Shown in pieces: positions 41,823 to 63,640 of a stretch of DNA of 64,000 bases. The first letter of the stretch is position 1; every line of letters begins with the position of its first letter. Made by a program: the position numbers and the translations under genes. The notes beneath the pieces are model-generated. The model was given only the letters and a program-made list of their open reading frames with translations. It had not been told where the DNA came from and searched no databases. The stretch comes from an uncultured Chloroflexia bacterium (lineage in GTDB: Bacteria; Chloroflexota; Limnocylindria; Limnocylindrales; CSP1-4). The stretch covers positions 18,506 through 82,505 of the forward strand of contig CAWFBR010000007.1 of the NCBI GenBank assembly GCA_963814125.1, written 5' to 3'.

Positions 41823-41876
41823 GCTGGGGTGGAACGCAGCCACGGCGACCTGAATGTCCCACTCCCGATCGAGTGC
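41823..41876. repeat. Copy C of a dispersed non-coding repeat family (core GGCGACCTGAATGTCCCAYTCC.G.TCGA.TGC)
   Basis: Nucleotide-level similarity to 63595-63640. The reading frames differ between copies. Confidence 0.5.
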
Positions 41877-42349
41877 GCGCTGGATGACCAGGTTTCGCCG
41901 CGTCGAATACGACAATCGCCGCTCTACGGGCAGACGGCGGGCGCCGTGGCCGGATCCACGTCCGTGCAGAGGTCATCCTTCGTGATCAAACCGGAGTCGA
42001 GCACGAGGCTGAAGTTGTCCCGGGTGATCGCCTGCGGCTGGAACTGGATCTGCCACATCTTGTTCCCGGCCGGCGACGTGATCTGCTTCGCACCCGAGAC
42101 CTTGGCAATGTCGTTACTGTGGCACAGCTCGACGGCGGCTTCCGCGGCGGCGGTGCCCACTCGAACCCCCTCAACAACTAAATGTGCGACGCACCTCGCC
42201 CAAAACGATACGCCAAGGGAAGGGCCCTCAGGCGACCGCAACCGCCACGTGGGCACCAGGCTGCTCGAAGATGACGTCGGTCGATGCCTCGAGGACCGCC
42301 AGGTCTGCGCCCGGCGCGACGAAGCCGGGGCTGGCCCCACCACGGAGCC

Positions 42350-42883
42350 CTACCGAGTTATCCGATAGTCGACGATCAGATAGCCGGTCGGTGAGATCTC
42401 GCTTCGGATCAATTCGAGCTTGATCGATGGCAGGTCGTCGAGGAGTCGTCGCCCGTGGCCGACGATCATCGGCCCTACCACGAGCTTGAGCTCGTCGACC
42501 ACACCGGCTGCGAGCAACGCCTGCGCGACCGAGATACTGGCGTGCACGCCGATCTCGCCACCAGGCTGCTGCTTGAGATCCCGAACGAATTCGACCAGAC
42601 CGCCCTCGATCGCAATCGCGTTGGCCCACTCCAGGTCAAGCGGCGTCGATGTCGCGACATACTTCGTGACCCCGTTGATGAAGGTCGCGAACGGCTCGGT
42701 CTCGCTGTTGGGCCAGAACCGCCCCCACTCGTCGTAGCTTCGGCGGCCGAGGACGACCGCGCCCTGGGTCTCGATCGTGGCGCCAAGCCTGCGGTCCACT
42801 GCGTCGTCCCACTCGAAGAATGTATCCGGAGCCTCGGCTACCCCGTCGAGCGACACCAACTCGTACACGACAATCTTTCGCAC
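42350..42883 (-). CDS. Dihydrofolate reductase family protein (RibD C-terminal domain)
   Basis: MRKIVVYELVSLDGVAEAPD..., second paralogue in the window. Confidence 0.8.
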   Translation of the reverse strand: MRKIVVYELVSLDGVAEAPDTFFEWDDAVDRRLGATIETQGAVVLGRRSYDEWGRFWPNSETEPFATFINGVTKYVATSTPLDLEWANAIAIEGGLVEFVRDLKQQPGGEIGVHASISVAQALLAAGVVDELKLVVGPMIVGHGRRLLDDLPSIKLELIRSEISPTGYLIVDYRITR

Positions 42884-43574
42884 GCCTTGCCTCCGATTAG
42901 TCTCGCCGCGCGTCGCTGAACCTGACGCCGGACCTACCGCGCGGCGCCAGCTTGGGATGGCCGTCCAAAGTCGTCAACCGCTTGCCTCCGCCCCGCACGG
43001 CAGGTCGAGACAACCCGTTACGTTCGTTCGCTGGAAGGCCACATCCACGATGCTACAAAGGCGACCAGGCTTGTGAGCCACGCCGCGGCGGCGATCAGTT
43101 CGGCGTTCCGCTCCTGCTCTTCGACCCGCTGAAGGGAACGACCGACGAGGACGGTTCCGCCGCTCCAGGAGACCGTAACGGACGCGATCCGCACTCCGGC
43201 TCGAGGTTCCCACGTCACTGCGTTGGGCGATCCCTTCCTGGCCGAGTCGAGAACCCCGCTCGGAGGAAACGGCACGCTGCCGTCCAGAGCGGCGTTCGAG
43301 GCGAGGACCTGATCCCTTGAGTCGAAGACGGTCATGAAAGGGGCGAGACTCGTGGCCGCGTCCACGGTGGCGGGGCCTGCAATCGATGCAGGGCTGGCGC
43401 CGGCGTCGAGCCGCTGGCGGTCTGCCGACCCGGGCAGTCCGACGAGCGGGCGCTGGCGGAGCTGGCCGCCAGGAATACGGCGCGAGAGAAATACTCCTCG
43501 GTGAGGTCCTCGAGGACCGCGGGCCGCGGGAGGGTTCAGCCGCCATCACGGACGCAGAGGCTGGATTCGGGACC

Positions 43575-43599
43575 TTCAGGTCGGGCGGTTCAATGTCCC
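43575..43599. repeat. Short segment (copy D) matching the upstream module of repeat copy B (TTCAGGTCGG[G/T]CGGTTCA...ATGTCCC)
   Basis: 18/19 nt identical to 63457-63475, about 130 bp upstream of the SBBP gene. Confidence 0.35.
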
Positions 43600-43731
43600 G
43601 CCGGGCGGCTCTTGTCACCCTCATGTCATCGAGGCGTCATCGGCCTGTCACCTGGGTTCGGGATCTTGTCGTGGGCCTTCTGATAGTTGCCCTCGGAGCG
43701 CGATCAAGGACGGCCGATATGGGAGGAAGCC

Positions 43732-45588
43732 ATGAATCCATCGCTGCTAACGCAAGCCCGGCGCCTGGGCTCGGGTCGCTCGCTGGTATTCTGCGCGCTG
43801 ACAGCGGCCCTGCTGGCGGTTGTCGCGAGCCCTCCGGCCCAGGGCTCGAGCGTCCGGGCCGCGAATGCCGATCCGACCTTCATCTACCAGACCAACTATG
43901 ACGGCGGCCCGTTCGACAACGGCGGGAACGATGAGGTCGTCGATAGCGCCGGAAACGCCTACATCCTGGAGGGGATCTACGACAGCATCGACAGGAACGA
44001 CGTGTTGGTGCTCAAGCTATCCCCGACCGGCGCGGTCCTCTTCACCACCTATCTGCGCGGCGGCGCCCTCGACTGGGGCACCGGCCTGGCCCTCGACGGT
44101 AGTGGCGGGCTGTGGGTGACCGGCTACACCGACTCGGCCGACTTCCCTGTGGTCAACGCGGCCCAGCCCGTGAAGGACGCGCGCCGATCCGGCTTCATCG
44201 CCCGCCTGTCCACCTCGAGCGGCGCGATCCTGTACAGCAGCTTCTTCGGCGGCAACGGCAATGACCAGATCAACGATCTGGTCATCGGGCCTAACGGCGA
44301 CATCTACTTGACCGGGCAGACCAATTCGACCGATCTCCCGGTCGTAAGCCCGTTGCAGACCAGCGCCGGCGATCGCGACGCCTTCGTGGTGCGCCTCTCG
44401 CCGGATGCCCGCACCGTCTTGTACGGCACCTACCTCGGCGGTTCCAACTACGACGAGGGCAACGGCATTGGCCTGGACGCGGCCGGCAACATCTACATCG
44501 CCGGCGACACCCAGGCGAATGATTTCCCCACCGTCAACGCCGTCCAGTCCAGCCGGGGCGGCGACTACGACGCGTGGGCGGCGCGGATCTCGGCCGATGG
44601 TTCGCATCTCGACTACAGCACCTACCTGGGAGGATCTCGCTACGAGTCCCCCTCCCGCATCAGCGTCGACGCGGCAGGCGACCTGACGCTGACCGGTTCC
44701 ACCAACTCGGCGAACTTCCCCACGACACCGGGCACGGCCCAGCCGGTGGCCACCGGCGACATCTGCGGCTCGTCCCCTTATCAGCACTACTGCTACGACG
44801 GCTTCGTGACTCGCCTTGCCCCGAACGGTGCGCTCGTCTACAGCACGTTCCTGGGAGGCAGCCTCGACAACCAGCTGAACAATCTGGCTGTCGACGGGGC
44901 CGGCAATGTCTATGTGATCGGCTACAGCAACTTCGCGGCGGCGCCGCCCGACTACCTGCCGACCTCGGACATCTACCTGGCCAGCCTTGACAACAGTGGC
45001 GACCTGCGGGCCAGCCTGATCTTCGACGCGGTCGTGCCCAACAGCTCGCACGGCCTTGCGCTCGGTCCGGGCGGCGACGTGTTCTTCACGGGCGTCCGAA
45101 ACCTGGCCGAGGACCTGTACGCGGCCCGACTGGTTCTCGGTAGCGGGCCGGCCCCCACACCAACGCCGACGCCCTTGCCGACCGCAACACCCACTCCCAC
45201 TCCCACCCCGACGCCGACGCCGATCGCGACGCCGACGCCCGAGGCCGCCAGCCTGCACGTGGCCGACCTGGACGGCAGCGCGACCGCCATAGGACGGCGC
45301 TTCTGGCGTGCCGGCGTCACCGTCCTGGTGCAAAACGCCGCCAATGACCCCGTCGCGAATGTCACGGTCACAGGTCGTTGGAGCCGCGGCACCTCGGGCA
45401 ACGTCCAGTGCGTCACCAACGCGAGCGGGACCTGCACGCTCTCGACCGGCACCATCAGCCAGCGAACGAGCAGCGTCACCCTCACGATCAGCAACCTGAC
45501 CGGCTCCGGATACACCTATGCCCCCGGAGCCAACACCGACCCCGACGGCGACAGCGACGGCACGACCATCGTCGTCTCGAGGCCCTGA
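43732..45588 (+). CDS. Secreted SBBP-repeat beta-propeller protein with PT-rich linker and C-terminal beta domain
   Basis: RBS GGGAGGAAGCC-ATG and a signal peptide. Several SBBP-type repeats (GYTDSADFPVVNAAQP; GDTQANDFPTVNAVQS; GSTNSANFPTTPG). Linker PTPTPTPLPTATPTPTPTPTPTPIATPTP. Confidence 0.8.
   Translation: MNPSLLTQARRLGSGRSLVFCALTAALLAVVASPPAQGSSVRAANADPTFIYQTNYDGGPFDNGGNDEVVDSAGNAYILEGIYDSIDRNDVLVLKLSPTGAVLFTTYLRGGALDWGTGLALDGSGGLWVTGYTDSADFPVVNAAQPVKDARRSGFIARLSTSSGAILYSSFFGGNGNDQINDLVIGPNGDIYLTGQTNSTDLPVVSPLQTSAGDRDAFVVRLSPDARTVLYGTYLGGSNYDEGNGIGLDAAGNIYIAGDTQANDFPTVNAVQSSRGGDYDAWAARISADGSHLDYSTYLGGSRYESPSRISVDAAGDLTLTGSTNSANFPTTPGTAQPVATGDICGSSPYQHYCYDGFVTRLAPNGALVYSTFLGGSLDNQLNNLAVDGAGNVYVIGYSNFAAAPPDYLPTSDIYLASLDNSGDLRASLIFDAVVPNSSHGLALGPGGDVFFTGVRNLAEDLYAARLVLGSGPAPTPTPTPLPTATPTPTPTPTPTPIATPTPEAASLHVADLDGSATAIGRRFWRAGVTVLVQNAANDPVANVTVTGRWSRGTSGNVQCVTNASGTCTLSTGTISQRTSSVTLTISNLTGSGYTYAPGANTDPDGDSDGTTIVVSRP
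45159..45243. repeat. Imperfect tandem ACNCCNACNCCG coding repeat (PT linker)
   Basis: Read directly in the sequence. Confidence 0.6.
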
Positions 45589-45677
45589 CACAGCCACTCG
45601 GCCAAGCGAGCCGTGATACGTCAACGCCCAGCCTCAGGGCCACCGGCCTCGAGGCTGGGCGATCGTCGGCCGAGACG

Positions 45678-46400
45678 TCACCGCGCGGCGACCGGCAACG
45701 CATCGAGGAGGGCCGCCAGCTCGACGGGCTTCGTGAACATCGGCCAGTGCCCGGTATCGATCTCCGTGTACTCCCACCCGGGAGTCTCGGGCGTAATCGG
45801 CGACCAGGCGTCCGCCGCGGCGCGGATGTAGGTACGGTCGATCGTCTCCGCGGCAGGATTTCCGAGCGACATGCGTTCCCGATAGGTTCCGATTGGATGT
45901 GGCGTTCCGCGCGTGGCCAGAACCTCGAACAGCGCGCCGTCGACGCCGTGCGCTCCGTAATAGAGATCGAGCTCCGCCCGCCCGATAACCGGCAGTCGGA
46001 ACGGATCACCCGCAGCGGCCGCGCTGGCCTCCATCCCGGCCTTCGCCTCAGGACCAATCACATCGAAGAGCGACAGGCCATCGGGCAGCACGACGCCGGC
46101 CACGTACACGAGGCGTGCGACTCGGTCTGGGATTCGGTCGGCGACTCCGGTGATCACGGCTCCCGCGTACGAGTGGCCGACGAGGATCACGTCACGGAGG
46201 TCGTCCTTCTCAAACAAGGAGACGACGTCGTCCACGTGAGTCGTCAGGTTCGTCTCCGGCGTCCCTTCGCTTGCGCGCTCCGCCAGGCCGCTGAGCGTCA
46301 CCGGGCGAACTTCATGCCCGCGACGACGAAGGTCGGCGGCGGTGGCCTCCCACGCCCAGGCACCGAGCCAGGCCCCGGGGATGAGGACGAATGTGCTCAC
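45678..46400 (-). CDS. Alpha/beta hydrolase (esterase/lipase fold)
   Basis: GTG start after GGAGAC. Nucleophile elbow GHSYAG and a C-terminal His. Confidence 0.8.
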   Translation of the reverse strand: MSTFVLIPGAWLGAWAWEATAADLRRRGHEVRPVTLSGLAERASEGTPETNLTTHVDDVVSLFEKDDLRDVILVGHSYAGAVITGVADRIPDRVARLVYVAGVVLPDGLSLFDVIGPEAKAGMEASAAAAGDPFRLPVIGRAELDLYYGAHGVDGALFEVLATRGTPHPIGTYRERMSLGNPAAETIDRTYIRAAADAWSPITPETPGWEYTEIDTGHWPMFTKPVELAALLDALPVAAR

Positions 46401-46460
46401 GGTTGTCTCCTTTCGATAGATGTGTCCGGTGATCGCGCTTTGTCTCCCACAATGCCACTG

Positions 46461-46485
46461 AATGAGGGCCGATAGTGTCCTCATT
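46461..46485. promoter_or_regulatory. Inverted repeat AATGAGG-N11-CCTCATT upstream of the WYL regulator gene; putative autoregulatory operator
   Basis: Perfect 7-bp arms, about 20 bp upstream of the preferred start at 46504. Confidence 0.45.
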
Positions 46486-46503
46486 CTCGGTATCCTTCTG
46501 GAC

Positions 46504-47454
46504 ATGGCCGCTACCCTTCGCCTCTTTGCACTCCTCGACGTGCTTCAGCGCGGCGGCTGGGTCTCCGGACCCGAATTAGCGAGGCGACTCGAGGTCGACG
46601 CGCGGATGCTGCGCCGCGACCTGGTCCGTCTCCAGGAGATCGGCATCCCAATCGAGTCGGAGCGCGGCCGGCATGGCGGTTACCGCCTCCGGCCCGGCTA
46701 CCGCCTGCCACCGCTCATGCTCACCGACGACGAGGCGGTCGCGGTCATCCTGGCGCTGAAGTCCGCCCGCGAACTTGGGTTCGCGACGGCTGCCCCTGCC
46801 ATCGAGACCGCAAGCGCGAAGATCCATCGTGTCCTACCAGTGGCGTTGCGCACGCGCGTGCAAACGCTCGAGGAAGCGTTGGGGCTCGCGGCACGAGCAT
46901 CCGCAGGCGGAGGGGCACAGGGCGGCGTGCTCCTGGAGCTCGCAGAGGGGATCCGGCGACAGCGTCGAGCGGTGGTCAGGTACGCCTCGCCGGGCCGCGA
47001 GCCTCGCGAGCGGAAGGTAGACCCCTATGGACTGGCGGTCATAAGCGGACGCTGGTACCTGGCGGCGCTGGACCACGGCAGCGCGGAGATTCGGACCTTC
47101 CGCGTCGACCGCATCCTCAGCGCGAAGCTGGGGCCGGAGCCCGCCGTCGTACCACCCGAGTTCGACGCCGTGGCGTTCGTCTCCCGCTCACTCGCGCGCG
47201 TGCCCTGGCGATGGGAGATCGAGCTGGTCGCCGACGCGAGCATGGACCAGGTTCGAAGGGACATCCCGGCCACGGTCGCGGAGATCGAAGAGCGACCCGA
47301 CGGCGTGCTCGTGCGTGTCCGCGCCGAGGATCTGTCGGGTGCCGCTCGGATGCTGGCAGCCGTGTCGTGGACCTTCGTCATCCGCAAGCCGGCCAAGCTA
47401 CGCACCGCGCTTCGAGAGCACGCCCAGGCGCTTCTCCAGACCTCGATCCGGTAG
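46504..47454 (+). CDS. WYL-domain transcriptional regulator (wHTH-WYL-WCX; BrxR/CapW/PafBC-like)
   Basis: N-terminal wHTH (LRLFALLDVLQRGGWVSGPELARRLEVDARMLRRDLVRLQEIGIPI), a WYL core (DPYGLAVISGRWYLAALDH) and a C-terminal extension. The track ORF starts at 46462. Confidence 0.8.
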   Translation: MAATLRLFALLDVLQRGGWVSGPELARRLEVDARMLRRDLVRLQEIGIPIESERGRHGGYRLRPGYRLPPLMLTDDEAVAVILALKSARELGFATAAPAIETASAKIHRVLPVALRTRVQTLEEALGLAARASAGGGAQGGVLLELAEGIRRQRRAVVRYASPGREPRERKVDPYGLAVISGRWYLAALDHGSAEIRTFRVDRILSAKLGPEPAVVPPEFDAVAFVSRSLARVPWRWEIELVADASMDQVRRDIPATVAEIEERPDGVLVRVRAEDLSGAARMLAAVSWTFVIRKPAKLRTALREHAQALLQTSIR

Positions 47455-47573
47455 TACGGCTGGAGGAGGCCGATCCCGAATCGCCGAAAAGCGGAGGCAC
47501 CCTCCTGATAACATCGCCCGATCGTCATGCGGGCAGAGCCACCCCAATCCATCGACTTCACACGAGGGGCAGC

Positions 47574-48734
47574 GTGAACGACGCAACAACCGCAGAGCAG
47601 GCGCGCGAGTACGCGCAGTACTGGGCCTCTCAAGTAACAGTGCTTACCGGCGCAGAACAGGCAGAAGCCCGCCGCTCGGCCGATTACTGGGCCGCACAGG
47701 CCGCACGACTGTCGGCGCCGCCGCCGGTACGGCGCAAGCTATTCACGATCCCCGTAATCATCACCCTCATTCTTGTTCCGATCCTCGTCGCCGGCACGAT
47801 CGCCACCGAGATAAGCTTGTACTCGCAGCGGGCAGCGGAGGTGCAGGAGAGTCGCGGACCCGGAGCAGAGAAGATCGCCACACTCTGGCTCGACGCTGTG
47901 ATCGCGCGTGACAGCAAGACGGCGAAGTTGTACAGCCTCGACAACTTCAGCGTCTACGGATCTGCGGACAAGGCAGACCTGAGCGGGGTGATCGTCGGCA
48001 CCCCGGAGGCGGCCAAGTCGATAGACCTCGGCGTCAGCTATTCGATTGAAGATGTGCTTTACGGCGACTGGCAGGGTGAGGCAATTGAGCCCGAGGCGAC
48101 AATCGCCGTGGTTGTCGTGCGGCTCACCTACTCGGCAACAGCGGAAGGAAATTCGGTCAAAGCGTCCGGTATCCAATCCGTCTCGCTCAAGCGAGACCAT
48201 TTCGACGCAAGGACCGGCGAAAACGTCGGCTCCGTGCCCGGTGGCTCCACCGTTCTGGGCCCCTGGAAAGTGCAGAGCATCGGCGGCACGGTTGAAGCGT
48301 CCGGCGACTTGAAGTACGACGGCGAGTACAGCACCTCGACCTACGCCGCGTCACCGCTGCCGGCAAAGTTCGCGCCTTGCACGAGCCCCAGCAGCATTAT
48401 GGACGACATGGCCGATACGGCGGTGAAAGACGGCACTCTCCCGGCGTGGTGCGCTGCCGGCTACACAAAGTTCAAGAATTACGACAGCGGTGTCACCACG
48501 ATCTTGCGGGACAACCTGGTGCCCTTTGACCGGGTTCCGCCCCACGACATCGTTGGGTTGGCACGTTGGAGGCCACAGTCGGGATTTGGCGGGCCTCCCC
48601 TCGCTGAACTCTCAACCACCCTGCTCAATCGAGAGTTCGTCTTCACCATGATTCTCGTCGACAGCAAGAACTGGCTTGACCCTAAATCCGCCGAATACCG
48701 GATAGTCAGCATCACCGAGAGGATCACTAAGTGA
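47574..48734 (+). CDS. Hypothetical single-pass membrane-anchored protein with large extracytoplasmic beta-rich domain
   Basis: GTG start after GAGGGG. Cytoplasmic N-terminal helix-rich 45 aa, a TM helix (LFTIPVIITLILVPILVAGTIATEI), then a roughly 310-aa domain. GC is lower than the flanks. Confidence 0.6.
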   Translation: MNDATTAEQAREYAQYWASQVTVLTGAEQAEARRSADYWAAQAARLSAPPPVRRKLFTIPVIITLILVPILVAGTIATEISLYSQRAAEVQESRGPGAEKIATLWLDAVIARDSKTAKLYSLDNFSVYGSADKADLSGVIVGTPEAAKSIDLGVSYSIEDVLYGDWQGEAIEPEATIAVVVVRLTYSATAEGNSVKASGIQSVSLKRDHFDARTGENVGSVPGGSTVLGPWKVQSIGGTVEASGDLKYDGEYSTSTYAASPLPAKFAPCTSPSSIMDDMADTAVKDGTLPAWCAAGYTKFKNYDSGVTTILRDNLVPFDRVPPHDIVGLARWRPQSGFGGPPLAELSTTLLNREFVFTMILVDSKNWLDPKSAEYRIVSITERITK

Positions 48735-50083
48735 CCGCGATGCCGCCCAACGCCTCCAAGCCCAAAGGCATCGGACCCGGGTGCCTGATTGGAACCATCT
48801 CCGGCGCCGGCCTCTTCATCGTCCTCATTTCGTTGTTGGTATTCACGGTCTCGCTACCGCGAAATATCGACTTCAATGCCACCCCGGCTTGGGCAGCTAA
48901 CGGGGAAGACCAGAGCAGCTACGCCACCCAGGACCTCTATGTGGCCCTGAACGCGTCGCTGTCGCACGGCGATCGTGACGCGTTCATGGAGCACGTGGGT
49001 GGGGATGCCATCGAGACCATGACCCTCTTCTTCGACAACATGGATGCGCTCGGCTGGTCCAAGGGCGCAATCAGCACCAACGATTTCGATAGTCTTCTGA
49101 GCACGCCAGAAACCACCATCACGGTGAAGTCGATCCTCGGCGTCGATGCGGGATTTACCGCATCCGCCCCGCGAGGTAGCGGCGGCAGAGATGCGGGCCT
49201 CATTTTCATTCAAGGCTACGTCTACGACGTTCAGATCGGCATGGAGGGTGGCCACGCCGTCATCACCGGCATCGCTGCAAGCAACACCACGCTGCCGTGG
49301 CTTGAACAAGAACTCTACGTGACCAAAACAGCCCATGTCGTCGCTGCCGGCTACCCGGCGGAGAAGGCAATCGTCGATCAAGTAGCGGCCAAGGCCGAGC
49401 CCGCCGCTGTGTGGGTGCTGGACAAACTCAACACGGAGAAGAGCCCGCTGCCCCTGGCAGGCTTCACCACCTTCGTTACTGACGACCCCGCCGTCTTCGC
49501 CAGTTGGTTCACTACGGATGTAACGAAAGATTGGAAGATGGACATCGCGGGAACAGCTTTCCCGACTCGTCGACCGGATGCCAATGAGTTTGTTGACCCG
49601 CTCATCGCGACTGGCTCAGAGACGGCGGCGAGCGTCGTCACTATTGGGCCGGGTGCCATGAATCAGCTCCCCGCCACCCTCGCACACGAATACGTACACG
49701 TGTCACAAATCGTGCAGGTTTCGAGTGGATTCGGTTCGCCGCCGCTCAACACAATCGAAGGGTGGGCGGTGTACATGGACACGCTCTACGTCAACGGCAA
49801 CAAGTACCCCTCTCACCACGTCGAGCTTGCCGCGTCTCTGGCTTACGCCGACCCCACTGGTGCGGCGCCAACCGACGACCAGCTGCACTCAGCTGACGCC
49901 TACTACTACTACCAACTTGCTGGAAGCCGCTTTGCGTATGCGGCAGCCAAAGGTTACGACGTGGAGAAGCTCGCCAATTTCTCGAAGTTGGTTGGGGTCG
50001 ATCCGATCAAGGCATCGACCGATCTCAACAACGGAAACACGCTGTCCGATGCCGGTTGGCTGGCTTGGGCGAAGGCCAACTAG
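48731..50083 (+). CDS. Hypothetical single-pass membrane-anchored protein with HExxH (HEYVH) motif; putative zinc metallopeptidase-like domain
   Basis: GTGA overlap with the upstream gene. TM helix (LIGTISGAGLFIVLISLLVFTVSL) and LAHEYVHVSQ in the C-terminal half. Lower GC (about 57-60%). Confidence 0.6.
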   Translation: MTAMPPNASKPKGIGPGCLIGTISGAGLFIVLISLLVFTVSLPRNIDFNATPAWAANGEDQSSYATQDLYVALNASLSHGDRDAFMEHVGGDAIETMTLFFDNMDALGWSKGAISTNDFDSLLSTPETTITVKSILGVDAGFTASAPRGSGGRDAGLIFIQGYVYDVQIGMEGGHAVITGIAASNTTLPWLEQELYVTKTAHVVAAGYPAEKAIVDQVAAKAEPAAVWVLDKLNTEKSPLPLAGFTTFVTDDPAVFASWFTTDVTKDWKMDIAGTAFPTRRPDANEFVDPLIATGSETAASVVTIGPGAMNQLPATLAHEYVHVSQIVQVSSGFGSPPLNTIEGWAVYMDTLYVNGNKYPSHHVELAASLAYADPTGAAPTDDQLHSADAYYYYQLAGSRFAYAAAKGYDVEKLANFSKLVGVDPIKASTDLNNGNTLSDAGWLAWAKAN

Positions 50084-50163
50084 TCGATTAGCGCGAGCCC
50101 CTGGCGCGGTTGGCGCCCTGCATTGCTCCCGGTGGACGCAGCTGAAGCAGAACGCTGACTCGG

Positions 50164-50496: not shown

Positions 50497-50531
50497 GCCA
50501 ACACGCCACGACAGAGCTCAGGGAGCCGACC

Positions 50532-55740: not shown

Positions 55741-55805
55741 CAAGCTCTCGAAGACCTGGGGTCGCTCTGGTCGGCGCCGCCGCCACAGGTGAGGGACGCC
55801 AGGAC

Positions 55806-56120: not shown

Positions 56121-56363
56121 GGTCTTGTCCACTGGCGTCTCTCCGGTGCGGACGGTGCCGGCTCTCACGACGGCTCCCGACCGCGAGGCTGGCGCGATCG
56201 CAGTCGCGCGTCAAGCGCGTGCCGCGGCGGGCGCGGAGCGTGGTCGCCCGGGCGTCAGGCGGCACGACGTCACGCCACGCGCCGCGCCTAGCGGGGAGCC
56301 GATCGACCTTGTCTTGACTGACCTCGTAATGCCGGGCATCCGGCTGTCAGCCGCGGCTGGGAA

Positions 56364-57584: not shown

Positions 57585-57614
57585 CAGTTGGGCTGCTCGT
57601 TCATCCTGCCAATA

Positions 57615-57627
57615 TCTTAGCAGCTAA
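57615..57627. promoter_or_regulatory. Palindrome CTTAGC-A-GCTAAG in the MarR / ABC divergent intergenic region; candidate MarR operator
   Basis: Perfect 6-bp arms in an AT-richer stretch. Confidence 0.4.
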
Positions 57628-57701
57628 GCTACTTACATCGCAACGCACAACCAACCCCGACAGGCTCGCGACCCAGACCGGGGTGGTCAGAGGACACCCG
57701 A

Positions 57702-58718
57702 ATGATGACTCTTCCATCGCCGACACAGAGAACGACTACGACCAACGCGCCCGGGCTGGCAGCCATCGAGGCCGTCGATCTCGTCAAGACCTACCGCGGT
57801 GGCGTCCGCGCCCTCGACGGAGTCAGTCTGACCGTTCAACCGGGCACCATCTTTGGACTGCTCGGGCCTAACGGTGCTGGCAAATCGACGACGGTCAAGA
57901 TCCTAACCACGCTCGCTCGAGCGGATTCCGGGTCGGCCCGGGTCATGGGCGTCGACGTCATGCGCTCACCGGACCGCGTCCGCCGCAGCATCGGGGTCGT
58001 CGGCCAGCATGGCGCCGTCGATCCTGAGGCGACGGGCCGCGAGAACCTGACCCTTCAGGGCCGCATCTACGGCATGGGCGGACCTACGCTCACCCACCGC
58101 GTCGACGAGCTCCTTCAGACGTTCGGGTTGACGGCGGCCGCCAACCGCATCGCCAAGACCTGGTCCGGCGGCATGCAACGCAAGCTCGACGTGGCCACCG
58201 GACTCGTCCACCGCCCGGCGGTGCTGTTCCTCGATGAGCCCACGACGGGTCTCGACCCAGAGGCGCGCGCGGATCTGTGGACCGAGGTCCAGCGCCTGGC
58301 GGCAGCGGGGCTGACCATCCTGGCAACCACTCACTACCTCGAAGAAGCGGATCGGCTCGCGGACCAGGTCGCGATAATCGACCACGGCCGCATTGTAGCC
58401 AGCGGCACACCCGACGAGCTGAAGTCGGAACTCCGAGGCGACGCAATCGTCGTGGAGCTTCAAGAGTCGCCCCGCAGCGGCGCCGCGGCGGCGGTGCTGG
58501 CGGGAGTCGAGGGCCTGCGCGACCCTCTCGTCGATGGCCGAACGCTCCGAGTCCGTGCAGACGACGGTGCCGGCTCTGCCCCGGCAGTGCTCGCCGCGCT
58601 AGACGCGGCCGGGCTGGCGGTGGCTTCGGTCACCGTGGCTCGCCCATCGCTCGACGACGTCTACCTGCGACACACTGGCCGGGCCTATAGCCCGGCGAGC
58701 CAGGAGGCAATCCGATGA
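57702..58718 (+). CDS. ABC transporter ATP-binding protein (DrrA-like)
   Basis: Walker A GPNGAGKST, signature SGGMQRK and Walker B LFLDEPTTGLD. Confidence 0.9.
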   Translation: MMTLPSPTQRTTTTNAPGLAAIEAVDLVKTYRGGVRALDGVSLTVQPGTIFGLLGPNGAGKSTTVKILTTLARADSGSARVMGVDVMRSPDRVRRSIGVVGQHGAVDPEATGRENLTLQGRIYGMGGPTLTHRVDELLQTFGLTAAANRIAKTWSGGMQRKLDVATGLVHRPAVLFLDEPTTGLDPEARADLWTEVQRLAAAGLTILATTHYLEEADRLADQVAIIDHGRIVASGTPDELKSELRGDAIVVELQESPRSGAAAAVLAGVEGLRDPLVDGRTLRVRADDGAGSAPAVLAALDAAGLAVASVTVARPSLDDVYLRHTGRAYSPASQEAIR

Positions 58719-59491
58719 CCACTCTCGCCCAGACCGCCTATGTCACCGGTCGTCACATGCGGTTCTTCTTCCGCACGCCCTGGCTGATCGGTATGTCGCT
58801 GACTCAGCCGGTGATCTGGCTGCTGCTCTTCGGGGCGTTGTTCAAGAGCGTCGCCGACATCCCGGGATTCGCCGGCGCCGGCAACTACTTGACCTACCTC
58901 ATGCCGGGCGTCCTGATCATGACCGCCATGTTCGGCTGTGGCTGGAGTGGCATGCAGATCGTCCAGGATCTCGATCGCTCGATCATGGATCGCCTCCTGA
59001 CGACGCCGATCCACCGTACCGCGATCATCGTCGGGCTCAACCTATATGAGATCTTCTCGTTGCTGGTCGAGGCCGTGATCATCGGCGGCATGGCGCTGCT
59101 GCTCGGGGCGCAATTCGACGGCGGCATCCTCGGCTTTGCCGTGCTGACACTGTGCGCTGTGCTGATCGGCGCGATTGCCGCGGCGCTTTCCGACGCGATG
59201 GCTCTTACCGTCCGCCAGGGCGAGTCGGTCATCGGCATCAACACCCTGACGACGCTGCCGCTGACCTTTCTCTCGGCGGCGTTCATGCCGCTCAACCTCG
59301 CGCCCGACTGGATCGCCACGGTGGCGAAGCTCAATCCGGTGAACTGGGCAGTGGAAGCCGGCCGGGCGGCGATGACGACGAGTCCTGACTGGTCGGCGAT
59401 CCTGCCGCGCCTGGCCGGACTGCTGGTGCTCACGGTTCTCACCACGGCGCTGGCGACCCGGACGTTCAGCTCGTATCAGCGGTCTTTGTAG
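58715..59491 (+). CDS. ABC-2 type transporter permease (DrrB-like)
   Basis: 6 TM helices. ATGA overlap with the ATPase gene. Confidence 0.85.
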   Translation: MTTLAQTAYVTGRHMRFFFRTPWLIGMSLTQPVIWLLLFGALFKSVADIPGFAGAGNYLTYLMPGVLIMTAMFGCGWSGMQIVQDLDRSIMDRLLTTPIHRTAIIVGLNLYEIFSLLVEAVIIGGMALLLGAQFDGGILGFAVLTLCAVLIGAIAAALSDAMALTVRQGESVIGINTLTTLPLTFLSAAFMPLNLAPDWIATVAKLNPVNWAVEAGRAAMTTSPDWSAILPRLAGLLVLTVLTTALATRTFSSYQRSL

Positions 59492-59689
59492 CTGGATCAC
59501 CGCGAAGTGGCCGCCACGCTCGAAATCGGCCCAGTGAACGGTTGCTCGCGATCCCGATCGGAGCCGGCGACGATCTTGAAGCCCATGTTGAGCTAAGCGT
59601 CGAGGTAGCCAGGCTCAGCTGCGACGATACTGGCGGCATGTCACGAATCAGCGCCATCCAGGCTACCTTGGATCTCTGCTCACCTGGAC

Positions 59690-59860
59690 TGGATTCGGCC
59701 TCACCTCTGGCAGCCTGCTGGTCGTCGTGACTGTCAGTGGCCCGCTCGGTCGCGCCTATCGGCACCGCATCGCCGCCGAGGAAGACCTGCTCCGACGTGA
59801 TTTGCCCGGCCACGTCGAATACAGCCGACGCACGAAGAAGTTGATCCCGTTCATCTGGTA
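59690..59860 (+). pseudogene. C-terminal remnant of an isoprenylcysteine carboxyl methyltransferase (ICMT)/phospholipid methyltransferase family gene
   Basis: Frame ending at 59860 reads ...GPLGRAYRHRIAAEEDLLRRDLPGHVEYSRRTKKLIPFIW, the conserved ICMT C-terminus. There is no room upstream for the rest of the gene. Confidence 0.35.
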
Positions 59861-59928
59861 GTCCTGCCATAAGGCCGGGGCGACAGCTGCCGCAGGGTCA
59901 GCCGATGCCAGCAGAAACAGGGGACAGC

Positions 59929-60008
59929 GAGCGTGAAATCGACGACGGGGTAGGCGGAACCTACCCGGCTGGTCGGGGCGAGAGGATTAGGGCCGACACT
60001 CCGTCGCC
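59929..60008. repeat. Copy A of the dispersed non-coding repeat family (GAGCGTGAA...TGGTCGGGGCGAGAGGA.T...CCGACACT)
   Basis: About 72% identity over about 80 nt to 63537-63614. Confidence 0.5.
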
Positions 60009-60320
60009 ATCTTTGCTGATCCTGGTCGAGAACATCCCGAACCATGTTGGTCGAGTCCGCGAGACGGCTTGAGGGTCGTGGGGGTCTACGACAGTTCCCC
60101 GCCTGGCCCACGTTGCGATCGTATTCGTCACGTACGAGCCGGTAGCACTCGCAGGCGCACGACTCCAGACTCTCGCCGTCGATGATCTCGGTCGCGGGTA
60201 GCCATCAGGACTCGTGTGGCGCGGCTCCGGCCGTCGTGGATCCATGTGGTAGCGGAATGTACGGTTCTCCTCTCTCGTCCCGGTGGCGTCAGCGATTGAC
60301 CTGACGAAGCGGGCCGCCGA

Positions 60321-61094
60321 CTACAGCTCCTGCGTGCGAAAGGCAAGCTGGGACGCCATTGCGAGGCCCATGACGGTCGCGACGGTCGCGGCGATGGGAC
60401 CGGCGACAAAGCCCGGATCGGCACCCACGGCAAGCGCCTGCGCCGGCGCCGCGAGCGAGCCTGGCATGTACGCGCCGACGACGGGCAGGTTGCCCAAGGT
60501 CGCGCTGATCGCGAAGGCGACGAACCCGATACCAGCCGCCGCGAGGGCCGATCGAGTGAGGGTGCTGCCGAGGAACGTGAAGGCGGCGAACGCGACCAGT
60601 GTCAGCCAGAGAAGGGCGGCCATGGCAACGAAGCCTGCGACGGGCAGCCACGTCCCGAAGAGCATCCCGATGTACAGGTAGCCCACCGACGCGCCGACGG
60701 CGACGGCGACGGCGAGATTGATCGCGATCGCCGCGAGCTTGGCGGCGAGGAACGCGCCGCGGGAGACGGGCTTGGAGAGCATCAGGGCGGCAGTGCCTCG
60801 CTCCTTCTCCGTGGCGACGGAACCCATCGCGAGCAGAATCGAAATCAGCAGGCCGAACTGGACGAAGTACCCGAGGAGCCGTTCGACGGCGTCCGCGGCG
60901 GTCGGAGTCCCGAGCGCGGCGACGATTGCGGCCGCCTCCGCGCCGCCGAACGCCTTCGCGATCTCCGGCATGTACCGGGCGGTGACGGGCGACAGGATGC
61001 CGAACGTGAGGAAGACGACGGCCACGACGGGAAGCCGGTAGGTGCGGAGCTGTTCGCGCAGCTCCTTGGCGAGCAGGATGCGGAAGCCGGGCAT
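60321..61094 (-). CDS. ABC-2 family transporter permease
   Basis: Internal start MPGFRILLAKE after GAAAGGAACC. 6 TM helices. The track ORF extends to 61394 with an Arg/Ser-rich non-protein-like N-terminus. Confidence 0.75.
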   Translation of the reverse strand: MPGFRILLAKELREQLRTYRLPVVAVVFLTFGILSPVTARYMPEIAKAFGGAEAAAIVAALGTPTAADAVERLLGYFVQFGLLISILLAMGSVATEKERGTAALMLSKPVSRGAFLAAKLAAIAINLAVAVAVGASVGYLYIGMLFGTWLPVAGFVAMAALLWLTLVAFAAFTFLGSTLTRSALAAAGIGFVAFAISATLGNLPVVGAYMPGSLAAPAQALAVGADPGFVAGPIAATVATVMGLAMASQLAFRTQEL

Positions 61095-61110
61095 GAGAGG
61101 TTCCTTTCGT

Positions 61111-62385
61111 TCAGGCTGCAGAGGTGGTGGGCTGGGCAAGCGAGGCGCCTGAGGGGGCACGATCCGGCCTGGCGACGAGGAGCAGGAAGACGTCCTCGAG
61201 CGATGGGCGGGCACGCTCGAACCGCGCCAGCGAGACGCCCGTTCCGAGGGCGATCGGCAGGATCTCCGCCGCCGCCGCCTTGGGGTCGTGGACGAATACG
61301 CGGAGCGTCTCGCCCTCGAGGCGCACTTCCCGGGTCCAGGGCTGACGGCGGAGGGCGTCGGCAAGCCGGTCGGTCCCTCGAGACTGGTGCGCATCGGCTT
61401 CGAGCTCGAAGACCGGCTGCGCGTACCGTTCCAGCAGCTCCTCGATCGGCGACTCCGCGACGAGGCGGCCGTAGTTGAGGATGGCGACGCGGTCGCAGAC
61501 GCGCTCGACGTCGTTGAGGATGTGCGTACTCATGAAGACGGTTGCCGTCCCTCGGACACGCTCGATGATCTGGAGCACGTCGCGTCGCCCTTCCGGGTCG
61601 AGCGCGCTCACCGGCTCGTCGAGGAAGAGGACCTGCGGCCGGTTGATGAGCGCCTGGGCGATGCCGAGCCGCTGCCGCATGCCGCCCGAGAAGCCCGCGA
61701 TCCGGCGACCCGCCGCGTCCGAGAGGCCCGAGATCTCGAGGACTTCGCCGACCCGCGTCCGCAACTCGGGACCGTTCAGGTCGTAAGTCCGTCCGACGAG
61801 CTCGAGCAGCTCCTGCGTCTTCATCCAGCCGTAGAACTGCGGGCTCTGGTCGACGTAGCCGATTCGCCGCGCGAGCTCCGGGCCGGCGCCGATCCGAACG
61901 CCCGCGACCTCGGCCGTCCCTGAGGTGGGCTGCGCCAGCCCGGTGAGCAGCCGCAGGGTCGTGGTCTTGCCTGCGCCGTTCGGGCCGAGGAACCCGAAGA
62001 TGGAGCCAGTCGGGACCTCGAGGTCGAGATCTTCGAGCGCGGTGAGCCGTCCGTACCGCTTGGTGAGGTCGTGCGTGCTGATCGCGAGCCCGTCCGTGGC
62101 GGCGAGCCGCGGCCACCCCGCCAGGACCCCATCGATTGCCGCGGCATCTGTCTTCGAAACGCCACCCGTTTCGATGCCGCCGCCCTCGTCGCGCCCGGCG
62201 AGGAAGTACACGATCGGTCCGACCATCGAGGCGCAGAAGATGACGAGCGCCCAGACGACCTTGCTGTCGCCTTTGACTCGGCGGTCTTCCTGGAAGAGGT
62301 CGTATAGGCCGAAGAGCGCGAGCCCGTACTGGAGGATCAGCAGCGGGATCACGATCGGCAGGTACTGCGAGACATCGATGGACAT
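61111..62385 (-). CDS. ABC transporter ATP-binding protein with N-terminal PLDc_N-type two-TM domain (fusion)
   Basis: Start MSIDVSQYLP after GGAAGGGAG. The N-terminal 65 aa (LPIVIPLLILQYGLALFGLYDL...VVWALVIFCASMVGPIVYFLAGR) matches the PLD-nuclease N-terminal membrane domain. Then Walker A GPNGAGKTT, signature SGGMRQR and Walker B LFLDEPVSALD. Confidence 0.8.
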   Translation of the reverse strand: MSIDVSQYLPIVIPLLILQYGLALFGLYDLFQEDRRVKGDSKVVWALVIFCASMVGPIVYFLAGRDEGGGIETGGVSKTDAAAIDGVLAGWPRLAATDGLAISTHDLTKRYGRLTALEDLDLEVPTGSIFGFLGPNGAGKTTTLRLLTGLAQPTSGTAEVAGVRIGAGPELARRIGYVDQSPQFYGWMKTQELLELVGRTYDLNGPELRTRVGEVLEISGLSDAAGRRIAGFSGGMRQRLGIAQALINRPQVLFLDEPVSALDPEGRRDVLQIIERVRGTATVFMSTHILNDVERVCDRVAILNYGRLVAESPIEELLERYAQPVFELEADAHQSRGTDRLADALRRQPWTREVRLEGETLRVFVHDPKAAAAEILPIALGTGVSLARFERARPSLEDVFLLLVARPDRAPSGASLAQPTTSAA

Positions 62386-62440
62386 TTCGGGCGTTCGCTC
62401 CCTTCCTCGAGTGATTGGCCGCACGCCGTTCGGCTGGCGA

Positions 62441-62504
62441 ACACTGTGCGGTTGACGGGCGGAACCGTAGCACGTACACTGTGCGGCGTCAACACACTGT
62501 TCGG
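62441..62504. promoter_or_regulatory. Three direct 11-bp repeats ACACTGT(G/T)CGG (62441, 62476, 62494) in the TetR / ABC divergent intergenic region; candidate TetR operator array
   Basis: Read directly. Two copies are exact and one has a single mismatch. Confidence 0.45.
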
Positions 62505-62546
62505 AAGAGACAACGGCGTTCGGGTGAACGAACGGGAGGTGACGGG

Positions 62547-63266
62547 ATGGCGCCGGAAGCGAAGGAGTCTGTAGAGCTGCCGTGGTGGCCGAAGCCGTCG
62601 AGCCGCTCGGCCGCGCGCGAGCCGCTGTCGAGGGACCAGATCGTCACCGCGGCGATCAAGCTCATCGACGCGGAGAATCTCGACGCCCTCTCGATGCGAC
62701 GACTCGGTCAGGAGCTCAACGCAGGCGCGACGTCGATGTACACGCACGTCCGCAGCAAGGACGAGCTGCTCGCGCTGGTGAACGACGTGATCGCCGGCGA
62801 GATCCTCGACCGCGTCTCTCTTGACGCCGGTGCTCCGTGGCGGGACCAGGCTGTCACGGTCGCGCGAGCGATCCGCGAAGTGTTGGTCACGGCCCATCCG
62901 CACGCCGCGCCGCTCTTCGCCGGCCGATCCAACGCGGGCCCCAACACGCTCGCGATCATCGAGGTGCTGCTCGGCGTGCTACGCAGCGCGGGGTTCGAGG
63001 GCAAGCGGCTGCTGCTGGCTTACGGCGCCGTCCTCAATCACGCGTACACCTATGCTGCGTCGGAGGCGGCGGCCGGGGCGGGCGGCGCCCATCGGGCGCG
63101 GGTGATGGCCGATGCGCTCGCGACGTCCTTGCCGCCGGATCGCTTTCCGAACCTCGTCGGCGTCGCGCGGTCTATGGCCGATCTCACCGCGGACGATCAG
63201 TTCGACTTCGGGCTCCAGCGGCTCCTCGACGGGCTCGAATCGCTCCTGGCCCGATCTCCCTCTTGA
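62547..63266 (+). CDS. TetR family transcriptional regulator
   Basis: Start after GGGAGGTGACGGG. HTH: QIVTAAIKLIDAENLDALSMRRLGQELNAGATSMYTHVRSKDEL. Confidence 0.8.
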   Translation: MAPEAKESVELPWWPKPSSRSAAREPLSRDQIVTAAIKLIDAENLDALSMRRLGQELNAGATSMYTHVRSKDELLALVNDVIAGEILDRVSLDAGAPWRDQAVTVARAIREVLVTAHPHAAPLFAGRSNAGPNTLAIIEVLLGVLRSAGFEGKRLLLAYGAVLNHAYTYAASEAAAGAGGAHRARVMADALATSLPPDRFPNLVGVARSMADLTADDQFDFGLQRLLDGLESLLARSPS

Positions 63267-63456
63267 CTGAACGAAACGGGACGGCACGAGAACGACCAGC
63301 GGCCACTCGCTCGGCCTGCAGGGCCGGCCATGGTGAACCCAGCACTGGTGGACTTCCTCGATGGTGTCGCCGGGTGAGCTCACGAGGCCGAGGGCCGACG
63401 TTGTGATAGGTGTGACAAGCGTTGTCACAAACGTCGTCCCGACGCCGGAAAGGGAC

Positions 63457-63640
63457 GTTCAGGTCGGTCGGTTCAGGATCAAACCCAAAAGGGCAGGGTA
63501 GAGCAGGTTCGCGAGAGGTTCGGAGAAGCCTGAATTCGAGCGTGAATCAGGCAACTCGGATGGGCTACCTACTCGAATGGTCGGGGCGAGAGGAGTCACA
63601 CCGACACTGGCGACCTGAATGTCCCATTCCGGCTCGAATG
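63457..63640. repeat. Copy B of the dispersed non-coding repeat family (upstream module 63457-63475, core 63537-63640)
   Basis: Aligns to copy A (59929-60008) and copy C (41823-41876). Coding frames are not conserved between copies. Confidence 0.5.

Follow-up and report, generated by a model that had tools for sequence, protein, structure and literature searches.

Repeat units in an uncultured Chloroflexota genome as probable junctions of serial integration at the 3′ end of tRNA-Pro

Repeat copies in the window and in related loci

The window (the whole stretch of DNA analysed here, 64 kb) carries four copies of a repeat, all in the same orientation (4/4, all four nhmmer copies counted): copy C (41797-41914, +), copy D (43546-43592, +), copy A (59922-59986, +) and copy B (63411-63700), which is the only complete unit among them and lies 300 nt from the window end. 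Between A and B stands a gene block (59989-63442) that encodes, according to Pfam, ORFs and GC3, an ABC-2 permease (−), a DrrA-like ABC ATPase (−) and a TetR regulator (+), and in which profile searches found no recombinase. Recombinase profiles detected no serine or tyrosine recombinase anywhere in the window, not even fragments, and ARAGORN found no tRNA or tmRNA gene in the 64-kb window, its units included.

The four similarities by which a preliminary description had recognized this repeat are all present in the sequence and above chance. Copy A (59959-60000) is 81% identical to copy B (63567-63608) over 42 nt (E 1e-5), the continuation of B (63609-63641) matches C (41844-41876) at 88% over 33 nt (E 2e-6), and the upstream module of B (63452-63475) matches D (43569-43592) at 92% over 24 nt (E 4e-4). 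The motif GGGACATTCAGGTCGCC occurs four times in the window at ≤3 mismatches against 0.31 expected, a count reached in 0 of 100 shuffles. The length of the repeat had been put at about 100 nt; the unit instead spans ~260–290 nt, and A, C and D are fragments, each from a different part of it. The reported ~80-nt alignment of A with B holds up to 59988, beyond which A departs from B; the sequence CCGACAC that both share is a half-site motif. B is intact, A is half replaced and C and D are heavily decayed, decay thus increasing leftward. The intergenic position of the copies was borne out, and the ORFs over A and B lack GC3 bias (0.55–0.67, versus 0.81–0.92 in real genes).

A full unit consists of a left arm, a 17-nt core and a right arm. 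In B, the left arm (63443-63576, +) contains the left inverted repeat GGGACGTTCAGGTCG (63452-63466), a variable hairpin region and a trailer-like CCTACTCGAA by the core; the core (63578-63594, +) reads TGGTCGGGGCGAGAGGA; and the right arm (63595-63700, +) holds the right inverted repeat CGACCTGAATGTCCC (63611-63625), followed by ~75 nt of conserved sequence. Directly outside the left arm is a perfect palindrome (TGTGACAAGCGTTGTCACA, 63413-63431), an optional accessory part of the unit whose motif recurs at the matching relative place in the related loci L004b (exactly), L009, L018, L005a, L016 and L031. Positions 63443-63700 match nhmmer profile positions 4-261 (E 5e-67), and B aligns with 11 other full units (12 full units in all).

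Copy A comprises a GAGCGTG motif, a hairpin (59949-59965) and an exact core (59970-59986), and matches profile positions 93-157 (E 2e-5). Its hairpin, GGTAGG-CGGAA-CCTACC, is of the tRNA-trailer type; the same hairpin precedes the core in six hairpin/right-arm units (e.g., L007, L009, L022 and L024) and is also found 3′ of an intact tRNA-Pro in L126. In place of the usual right arm, copy A has an alternative one, X′ (59987-60079, +), which is 85–86% identical to L003 2659-2750, L019 5473-5381 and L028 7719-7627 and 77% identical to L030 7862-7951; all four stand directly 3′ of a core. Copy C consists of a degenerate core (~41813-41843) and a right arm with its right inverted repeat (41846-41860); it aligns locally with B 63559-63678 and matches profile positions 169-215 (E 3e-8). 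Copy D covers 47 nt at the outer side of a left arm, with half of the palindrome (TCACGGACG) and the left inverted repeat GGGACCTTCAGGTCGGGCGGTTCA, and aligns with B 63425-63475 (profile positions 8-37, E 4e-4); the remainder of its unit is deleted.

A profile search of relatives for further copies recovered 40 (nhmmer, E<1e-6) in 24 related Chloroflexota loci. They are spaced 1.5–5 kb apart between unrelated accessory genes (TetR, ABC transporters, ADH, AKR, sigma-70, MarR, PIN), and every multi-copy contig is uniform in orientation (7/7, 7/7, 5/5, 3/3, 3/3 and, on four contigs, 2/2). The conserved arms measure ~130 and ~90 nt, and at the core they combine independently of each other: all sequence to the right is common to L005b and L030, all sequence to the left to L004b and L009. 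The right arm stays linked to the gene block on its right, as seen in L005 and L030, which are 88.8% identical over 2.5 kb from the core.

These observations bear on a candidate of the preliminary description, a MITE-like element, taken here as a MITE that would spread by transposition with the 15–23-nt inverted repeats as its ends. B does contain a 23-nt inverted repeat (63444-63466 / 63611-63633) with halves ~145 nt apart, copies are many per genome and coding capacity is not evident. However, conserved sequence extends a further ~75 nt beyond the right inverted repeat and, on the left, reaches a palindrome outside the other one; the repeats are therefore not termini. Left and right parts are also found separately, always joined at a core that is identical to a tRNA 3′ end, copies are co-oriented on each contig, and the associated enzyme is a serine recombinase, with no associated transposase. 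Inspection of the flanks of the 12 full units, a check for target-site duplications, showed no direct duplication beside the inverted repeats. We consider a MITE very improbable.

The unit could also be a structured non-coding RNA kept for its function, whether a small or cis-regulatory RNA, a terminator or processing signal, or a tRNA-like element. B folds better than its shuffles (z −3.8 on the plus strand, −5.3 on the minus strand), the unit contains tRNA-like segments and local hairpins, and some hairpins of the variable region keep their pairing with different sequences. Against this, Rfam gave no match at the gathering threshold or at E≤10, and none of 20 tested pairs changes on both sides (nine show only unpaired departures), nor is any pair of the long inverted repeat so altered in the alignment. 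The covariation score is no better than that of shuffles, and the RNAalifold covariation term is unfavourable (+0.86). Unit orientation is uniform whereas the genes beside the copies converge (C, A), diverge (D) or run in one direction, the position of the copies relative to genes is not consistent, and the strongest conservation falls on the tRNA 3′ end and on the coding tail of a recombinase described below. An RNA function is accordingly improbable as the reason for the conservation of the unit.

The core and its tRNA-Pro target

The 17-nt core matches exactly, in antisense, the final 17 nt of tRNA-Pro(CGG), comprising the last T-loop base, the 3′ strand of the T-stem, the 3′ strand of the acceptor stem, the discriminator and CCA. 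Exact matches occur in the window at the cores of A and B, and the same sequence forms the 3′ end of the ARAGORN-predicted tRNA-Pro(CGG) genes of L007, L126, L158-160 and L163. The target is tRNA-Pro(CGG), and probably also tRNA-Pro(UGG). The first ~36 nt of the left arm of B align to tRNA-Pro as well, in sense orientation from the anticodon loop to the T arm (score 34, reached by 0 of 1000 shuffles); likeness of the right arm to tRNA beyond the core is marginal when taken alone (55 of 1000 shuffles reach its score). A dyad, GGTCGG..CCGACC, flanks the core; its spacing is 16 nt where it occurs in units and 19 nt where it occurs in the tRNA.

The tRNA-Pro site is found in three states of occupancy: trailer/tRNA (L126), left arm/tRNA (L007) and recombinase/tRNA (L158). 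L126, with the hairpin trailer only, is the sole example of the empty state and comes from one 1-kb metagenome contig. In L007, tRNA-Pro(CGG) (6631-6707, −) abuts a left arm (6503-6630) and forms the right end of a 5.3-kb block, with a copy made of hairpin, core and right arm 5.3 kb to its left; in L158-160 and L163, an ORF with a Resolvase domain overlaps the tRNA-Pro gene. L007 and L158 are orthologous loci, since their downstream aldo/keto reductases are 67% identical. In a survey for empty sites, the aldo/keto-reductase orthologues P0126, P0143, P0154 and P0164 had no adjacent tRNA-Pro, and synteny therefore holds only in a subset of genomes.

Alternative occupancy of one chromosomal site is seen most directly within one species, in L187 and L189 (flank 100% identical), where two unrelated elements abut tRNA-Pro. 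Identity between them is 100% rightwards from an ATG one base before the core, with none leftwards, so that homology breaks at the att core. In the arm-exchange pairs, breakpoints are confined to ~38 nt. On another contig, a unit (L032) stands 42 kb to the left of a recombinase and tRNA-Pro anchor (L163), on the same strand. A metagenome scan with AATGGTCGGGGCGAGAGGATTTGAACC proved too general, the tRNA-Pro 3′ end being common across phyla (GC 0.32–0.75), and its only informative loci were L126, L065, L105, L141 and L150.

A large serine recombinase that reads through the core

In relatives, a large serine recombinase gene reads through the core and on into either the right arm or an intact tRNA-Pro gene. 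The last 14 residues of the enzyme, MVGARGxKPTxAT*, are encoded by the core and the following 25 nt, and nearly all units contain this 14-codon tail. B retains it (63577-63618, +; translation MVGARGVTPTLAT*) without the recombinase gene, no gene body being found upstream, and matching tails end the recombinase ORFs of L025 (MVGARGDKPTPAT*) and P0017 (MVGARGVNPTLAT*). The gene runs into a family core and right arm in L006 (4199-5791, −) and in L025, where it is frameshifted; it adjoins family units in these two loci and a tRNA in L065, L105, L158-160, L163 and L187. Overall, a serine recombinase gene adjoins only ~5% of the junction copies examined.

The proteins fit the large-serine-recombinase class, whose members typically have Resolvase catalytic, Recombinase and zinc-ribbon domains and ~450–700 aa. 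Pfam assigns Resolvase to the 531-aa protein of L006, Resolvase and Recombinase to that of L065, and Recombinase to that of L025. Homologues number 355 at E≤1e-20, and the 120 closest listed are mostly 480–630 aa with a few shorter fragments; among these 120, PF00239 was found in 111, MVGARG near the C-terminus in ~61, and a C-terminal tail ..FEPPTSSSRTMRATKLRHAPTE, the antisense of tRNA-Pro, in 7–8. The enzyme is found in Limnocylindrales-like Chloroflexota, and the integration pattern is seen here in uncultured members of the phylum from soil and peat. A tyrosine integrase with lambda-like P/P′ arm-type sites was rejected: a phiC31-seeded profile revealed the serine recombinase instead, and a lambda Int-seeded profile returned from ~185 kb only two C-terminal fragments of tyrosine recombinases (L027 and L035), not at array starts. 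DNA alignments (z≤2) likewise spoke against deriving the left arm from a decayed 3′ terminus of the recombinase gene, and this origin was rejected.

Since the recombinase ORF extends across the site, the partner DNA determines the C-terminal tail of the enzyme. Tails of the ..PTLAT* type come from the usual right arm and ..PTHRRHRC* from X′, the translation of which is the C-terminal end of the homologues P0007, P0014 and P0019 (..GARGLxPTxRRxxC*). These enzymes form a natural set of large serine recombinases with a defined and universally conserved target, the tRNA-Pro 3′ end, and two or more partner-site variants, which is of practical interest for genome-integration tools.

The coding tail also decides how the reading frames of the copies are to be understood. 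The preliminary description had taken the frames to differ between copies, which is wrong: the matched blocks contain no indels, the frames therefore agree, and one plus-strand frame is the relic of the recombinase C-terminus. The absence of indels and the codon-like substitutions in the core region would also suit remnants of a decayed protein-coding family, for example one read in the minus frame as ..EWDIQVAxVG(L/V)TPLAPTIRVG.... We rejected this peptide: the minus-strand ORFs have neither GC3 bias nor a conserved start, their upstream parts are of 3–124 codons with unrelated sequences and no conserved ORF, nothing in Pfam matches them, and the plus-frame tail explains the codon-like pattern. 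Coding relics account for only 42 nt of the ~260, namely the last 14 serine recombinase codons; for these alone does descent from a gene hold, and such an origin for the unit as a whole is scarcely credible.

Proposed serial integration and its nearest parallels

We conclude that the copies are very probably att-type recombination junctions, some of them decayed, left by serial site-specific integration of gene blocks at the tRNA-Pro 3′ end by a large serine recombinase. Of the three candidates in the preliminary description, the remnants of a mobile-element end were thus essentially right, the copies being attachment-site junctions of integrative elements, while the RNA and MITE candidates were not supported. 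In autonomous elements, the recombinase gene stands where the left arm would be and reads through the core, so that its last 14 codons and stop fall within the core and the 25 nt of right arm next to it. Exchange would take place at the T-loop/T-stem boundary of the tRNA. Integration would set the recombinase-bearing end against the tRNA and shift the old trailer and core to the far end; further integrations would displace older blocks from the tRNA, and the outcome would be a co-oriented array with internal joints like B. Blocks that have left-arm/core/right-arm joints and no recombinase may move, or may once have moved, in trans.

From the gradient of decay from B through A to C and D, we infer that the array has its anchor in a tRNA-Pro gene on the minus strand, probably past position 64000 and so outside the 64-kb window. 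Since the window contains neither tRNA nor recombinase, the model as applied to it rests on homology with other genomes. The window from ~41.8 kb to its end would then consist of accreted foreign blocks with transporters and regulators, and the combination of long non-coding gaps with a conserved repeat in these poorly known uncultured soil and peat Chloroflexota would be the footprint of a gene-acquisition hotspot.

Several observations count against this array model. No circular or excised form was observed. Serine recombinase sites need roughly 50 bp, and the conserved arms are much longer. Hybrid sites are not normally substrates of large serine recombinases, and repeated integration at one tRNA therefore requires an extra assumption. 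In genome MFD05502, the arrays (312-352 kb and 424-432 kb) are far from the aldo/keto-reductase orthologue of that genome, and no anchoring tRNA was seen in its examined pieces.

A bolder reading, which we regard as possible but rather unlikely, is that the recombinase-less blocks are not dead scars and form a working integron-like cassette system, with a serine recombinase and a tRNA as its basis. On this reading every block would possess a full left-arm/core/right-arm site, whose inner left half (CCTACYYGAATGGTCGGGGCGAGAGGA) would reproduce the tRNA side of the target; insertions would each time restore a target at the tRNA that can be used again, and the internal joints would all stay usable as donor sites. 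A recombinase encoded elsewhere would add, excise and shuffle cassettes of 1.5–5 kb across Limnocylindrales, and its C-terminal tail, which would switch with integration state, might be a regulatory device. Mobility of recombinase-less blocks in trans, if borne out, would amount to a second path to integron-like cassette arrays, unrelated in mechanism to the first. Like integron cassette arrays (attC, Vibrio cholerae repeats), the units are co-oriented, family-specific repeats of 100–300 nt between small, promoter-poor accessory blocks, their recombinase is encoded elsewhere and they were first noticed as a dispersed family. In contrast to integrons, there is no IntI tyrosine recombinase, attI or GTTRRRY core (the latter absent from the unit consensus), the site derives from a tRNA 3′ end, and blocks are often multi-gene and in both orientations; with a serine recombinase as the enzyme, attC was rejected as an identity for the unit.

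Serial integration at tRNA ends is an already known way of building genomic islands, and the nearest known system is that of the Dehalococcoides ssrA islands, which involve a large serine recombinase, insertion in the T-loop and tandem islands bounded by a 20-bp repeat (PMC3146451). About half of these islands lack an integration module (McMurdie et al. 2011, PMC3146451). Both systems belong to the phylum Chloroflexota; in both, a recombinase of the large serine type (~500–540 aa, likened by type) adjoins the attachment site, the inferred insertion point falls within the T-loop part of a tRNA-like 3′ domain, a short direct repeat of the gene 3′ end, with further conserved nucleotides beside it, delimits the tandem islands, and the integration module includes a DNA methylase gene. 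The target there, however, is tmRNA and here tRNA-Pro, so that the present family is not a strict member of the ssrA-island system. Here, moreover, the recombinase ORF runs through the site, junctions are conserved over ~260 nt with an inverted tRNA-like segment, and blocks are small (1.5–5 kb), with a recombinase gene by only the small fraction of junctions given above.

In tycheposons, later integrations push older elements inward and leave partial tRNAs (Hackl et al., bioRxiv 10.1101/2020.12.28.424599). The Prochlorococcus elements resemble ours in tRNA-gene integration, inward displacement, partial tRNAs, fragmented integrases and cargo genes, but they are cyanobacterial and use tyrosine recombinases and several tRNA targets, whereas here we find a serine recombinase, a single tRNA species and a long conserved junction unit. 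Two further parallels concern blocks and targets. Streptococcal CIMEs are att-flanked blocks without recombination genes of their own, in tandem with autonomous elements able to move them; they depend on tyrosine integrases, and their arrays hold one or two elements, compared with arrays here that reach at least 40 kb and junctions that number in the dozens per genome. Actinomycete elements of the pSAM2 type integrate at the 3′ part of tRNA-Pro and carry a copy of the tRNA 3′ segment, with a tyrosine integrase and a 58-bp identity segment that starts in the anticodon loop; the present family instead has a serine recombinase and exact identity over the last 17 nt.

Probable junction copies in the window and in other genomes

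We read the four copies of the dispersed repeat (A to D) as junctions left by serial serine-recombinase integration at the 3' end of a tRNA-Pro gene. The similarities listed in the preliminary description were all found where it placed them, and a mechanical search also recovered them: A (59959-60000) matches B (63567-63608) over 42 nt at 81%, C (41844-41876) matches B (63609-63641) over 33 nt at 88%, and D (43569-43592) matches B (63452-63475) over 24 nt at 92%. The 17-mer GGGACATTCAGGTCGCC occurs four times in the window with up to three mismatches, against 0.31 occurrences expected, and B holds a 23-nt inverted repeat (63444-63466/63611-63633). ORFs over A and B have a GC3 of 0.55–0.67 and flat codon-position GC, compared with 0.81–0.92 in real window genes, and none of the ORFs overlapping either copy has a Pfam match. 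Within the window there is no tRNA or tmRNA gene and no Rfam family, and profile searches found neither a serine nor a tyrosine recombinase.

To find relatives, one genome per species was scanned with an 18-mer common to B and C, which gave 35 loci, 24 of them true relatives. Nearly all of these are Chloroflexota MAGs from fen, peat and soil, labelled Chloroflexia or Candidatus Limnocylindrales (one was binned as Gemmatimonadetes), and a single contig often carries several of the loci. With a profile made from seven full-length copies, 40 copies were detected at E<1e-6 in the 24 loci, typically spaced 1.5–5 kb apart. Orientation is uniform within each contig (7/7, 7/7, 5/5, 3/3, 3/3, and 2/2 in four contigs), and the genes between copies are unrelated accessory types (TetR, ABC transporters, alcohol dehydrogenases, aldo/keto reductases, MarR, ECF sigma factors and PIN).

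A complete unit spans about 260 nt: a left arm containing GGGACATTCAGGTCG, then a hairpin region that varies between units, the nearly invariant ACCTACTCGAATGGTCGGGGCGAGAGGAGTCAAACCGAC, and a right arm containing CGACCTGAATGTCCC plus some 75 further conserved nucleotides. Partial copies retain one side of the unit, left or right, and in nearly all of them the meeting point is a 17-nt core. All four copies in the window lie on the plus strand. B (63411-63700) is an intact internal joint in which left arm, core and right arm are all present. In A (59922-60079), a hairpin of the trailer type and the core are joined to an alternative right arm, X', which recurs behind a core at four other loci (L003, L019, L028 and L030); C (41797-41914) is a degenerate core followed by a right arm; and D (43546-43592) preserves only a left arm's outer end. 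Between C and D lies a 1.7-kb block, with the right arm (C) preceding the left arm (D) as expected, and A and B bracket a block with an ABC transporter and TetR.

Two candidates from the preliminary description fared less well. A structured RNA was not supported by a covariation test on 12 full units: in none of the 20 pairs tested do both sides change, 9 of the 20 depart by mismatches only, and the covariation term is unfavourable to a base-paired RNA. The two inverted repeats behave instead as sites conserved independently of each other. At the left one begins an inverted copy, of about 36 nt, of the right half-site, a stretch that aligns significantly with tRNA-Pro from the anticodon loop to the T arm. 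A MITE fails on architecture: the repeats do not mark the ends of the unit, copies on a contig point the same way and the arms swap at the core. Nor were target-site duplications found at the units.

Some further features accompany the copies. TGTGACA-N5-TGTCACA, a palindrome that resembles an operator and is often longer (CGTTTGTGACA..TGTCACAAACG), lies just outside the left arm in 6–7 of 15 left-arm copies (window 63413-63431; L004 4616-4634; L009 ~5118; L016 ~710; L031 ~825). Next to A, 59640-59864 (+) holds the 3' fragment of an isoprenylcysteine-carboxyl-methyltransferase-like gene (..RTKKLIPFIW*; identity from this motif alone), whose 5' part is absent and which is kept together with junction A in L003 (89.5% over 429 nt). 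A 31-nt inverted repeat (58638-58668/61182-61212, 90% complementary) lies within two opposite-strand DrrA-like ABC ATPase genes; its arms are paralogous genes of neighbouring blocks, not a structural element.

The core and the tRNA-Pro target

At one related locus, L007, ARAGORN called a tRNA-Pro(CGG) gene (6631-6707) that runs antiparallel to the units. The core exactly complements the last 17 nt of this tRNA, CCA included, and the tRNA 3' end is abutted by a left arm. A copy with a short hairpin (GGTAGG..CCTACC), core and right arm lies 5.3 kb leftward. On a metagenome contig (L126) the same tRNA-Pro is followed by that hairpin alone, so that the hairpin is plausibly the native tRNA-Pro trailer.

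Between genomes, both edges of the core are homology breakpoints. L005b and L030 match rightward from ACCTACTCGAATGG over 2.5 kb (88.8% identity) and are unrelated leftward, and L004b and L009 share about 90% identity from far left through the core, with family-level similarity right after it. On contig_54691 a full unit (L032) sits 42 kb left of a recombinase and tRNA-Pro anchor, on the same strand. In the window, profile scores drop from right to left (223 bits for B, against 21 for A, 17 for D and 31 for C), which fits the newest insertions being nearest the tRNA. On that model we infer a minus-strand tRNA, past position 64 kb, as the anchor of the window's array.

A second tRNA-Pro isoacceptor, as its sequence suggests, may also be a target. 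At L024 (6772-6830, minus strand) the core leads into a tRNA-Pro(UGG)-like body not called by ARAGORN, and four recombinase homologues (P0008, P0010, P0021 and P0040) end in similar sequence (MVGARGFEPAVPKCRI..). Two other tRNA genes, for tRNA-Ala(GGC) and tRNA-His(GTG), have units no more than about 200 nt away (L020 2360-2435 and L035 6231-6306).

Recombinase genes that run through the site

Using a serine recombinase profile seeded with phiC31 integrase, we found large serine recombinase genes running straight into units at L006 (4199-5791, minus strand; Resolvase domain) and L025 (a frameshifted gene; Recombinase domain), and into intact tRNA-Pro genes at L065 and L105. The tyrosine-recombinase profile returned two C-terminal fragments only (L027 and L035). 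Recombinase genes are scarce: against 40 junctions stand two serine recombinase genes and two tyrosine fragments.

The core and the 25 nt of right arm that follow it form the end of the recombinase gene (ATG GTC GGG GCG AGA GGA ..., read as MVGARG(V/D)KPT(L/P)AT*), and its stop codon falls within GACCTGAATG. B retains this 14-codon tail (63577-63618, MVGARGVTPTLAT*) without the gene body, a relic that accounts for the codon-like substitution pattern that had once hinted at a peptide. Among the best 120 of 355 database homologues, about 61 carry MVGARG near the C terminus, and the residues after it vary with the DNA beyond the core: FEPPTSSSRTMRATKLRHAPTE is the antisense of tRNA-Pro(CGG), tails of the ..PTLAT* type correspond to the usual right arm, and ..PTHRRHRC* corresponds to the alternative right arm, as in copy A. 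The tail FEPAVPKCRI we take to be the antisense of a putative UGG isoacceptor. On contigs encoding MVGARG proteins, the recombinase ORF overlaps tRNA-Pro(CGG) and is followed by an aldo/keto reductase with 67% identity to the neighbour of the L007 tRNA.

Within a single species, whose flank is 100% identical, tRNA-Pro is abutted by two unrelated elements (L187 vs L189), one with a methylase and a recombinase of 530 aa, the other with an AAA protein and a recombinase of 500 aa. Starting at the ATG, which lies one base ahead of the core, the two sequences are 100% identical rightward; leftward there is no identity.

A second recombinase subgroup (L187 842-2344; L065 10665-12266) reads through the core in a different frame, to a C terminus of ..(Y/N)GRGERI*. 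Its stop is a TGA inside the tRNA T-loop (TTTGAACC), so that the integrated form carries a short, defined tail. At L158 (8038-9832) and L163 (6859-8312), a DNA methylase (N6_N4_Mtase) and proteins of 54–74 aa lie just upstream of the recombinase; one small protein in L158 has a weak treble-clef/zinc-ribbon Pfam match. Derivation of the left arm from a recombinase 3' end was also considered and rejected, as it was undetectable.

Proposed array growth, known systems and other window regions

Serine recombinases normally refuse hybrid sites. In a tentative mechanism of array growth, the inner left half-site of units lacking a recombinase would be the same as that of the tRNA target, and with such a match integration would recreate a target-like site at the tRNA.

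Judged by analogy, the closest known system is that of the ssrA-specific islands of Dehalococcoides, also Chloroflexota, in which a 540-aa serine recombinase adjoins the site and insertion occurs in the T-loop; the islands are tandem, with a 20-bp repeat and additional conserved flanking sequence at their boundaries, and have a methylase in an integration module that about half of them lack (PMC3146451). The methylase and small proteins upstream of the recombinase at L158 and L163 recall that module. In tycheposons, older elements are likewise pushed inward, as proposed here, and partial tRNAs are left over (bioRxiv 10.1101/2020.12.28.424599). The present system differs in that its target is tRNA-Pro, the recombinase gene runs across the site, conservation of the junction unit extends over a long stretch, and recombinase genes are scarce.

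Three other regions of the window stand out. A minus-strand ORF at 33873-36509 has 12-nt tandem repeats of the GGGGTCGGACTC/GGGCTCGGACTC type (34333-34508 and 34987-35132) and a 300-nt internal duplication (33876-34175/34530-34829, 76% identical), and its product looks like a repetitive, low-complexity protein. Two adjacent ORFs without a Pfam match (47211-50083; 507 and 450 aa) lie in a GC dip (0.60 vs ~0.67) inside the presumed accreted region. Outside the repeat-bearing region, 22000-28000 has lower GC (0.61–0.64), with a marked negative GC skew in its first 3 kb, and may be another foreign segment.
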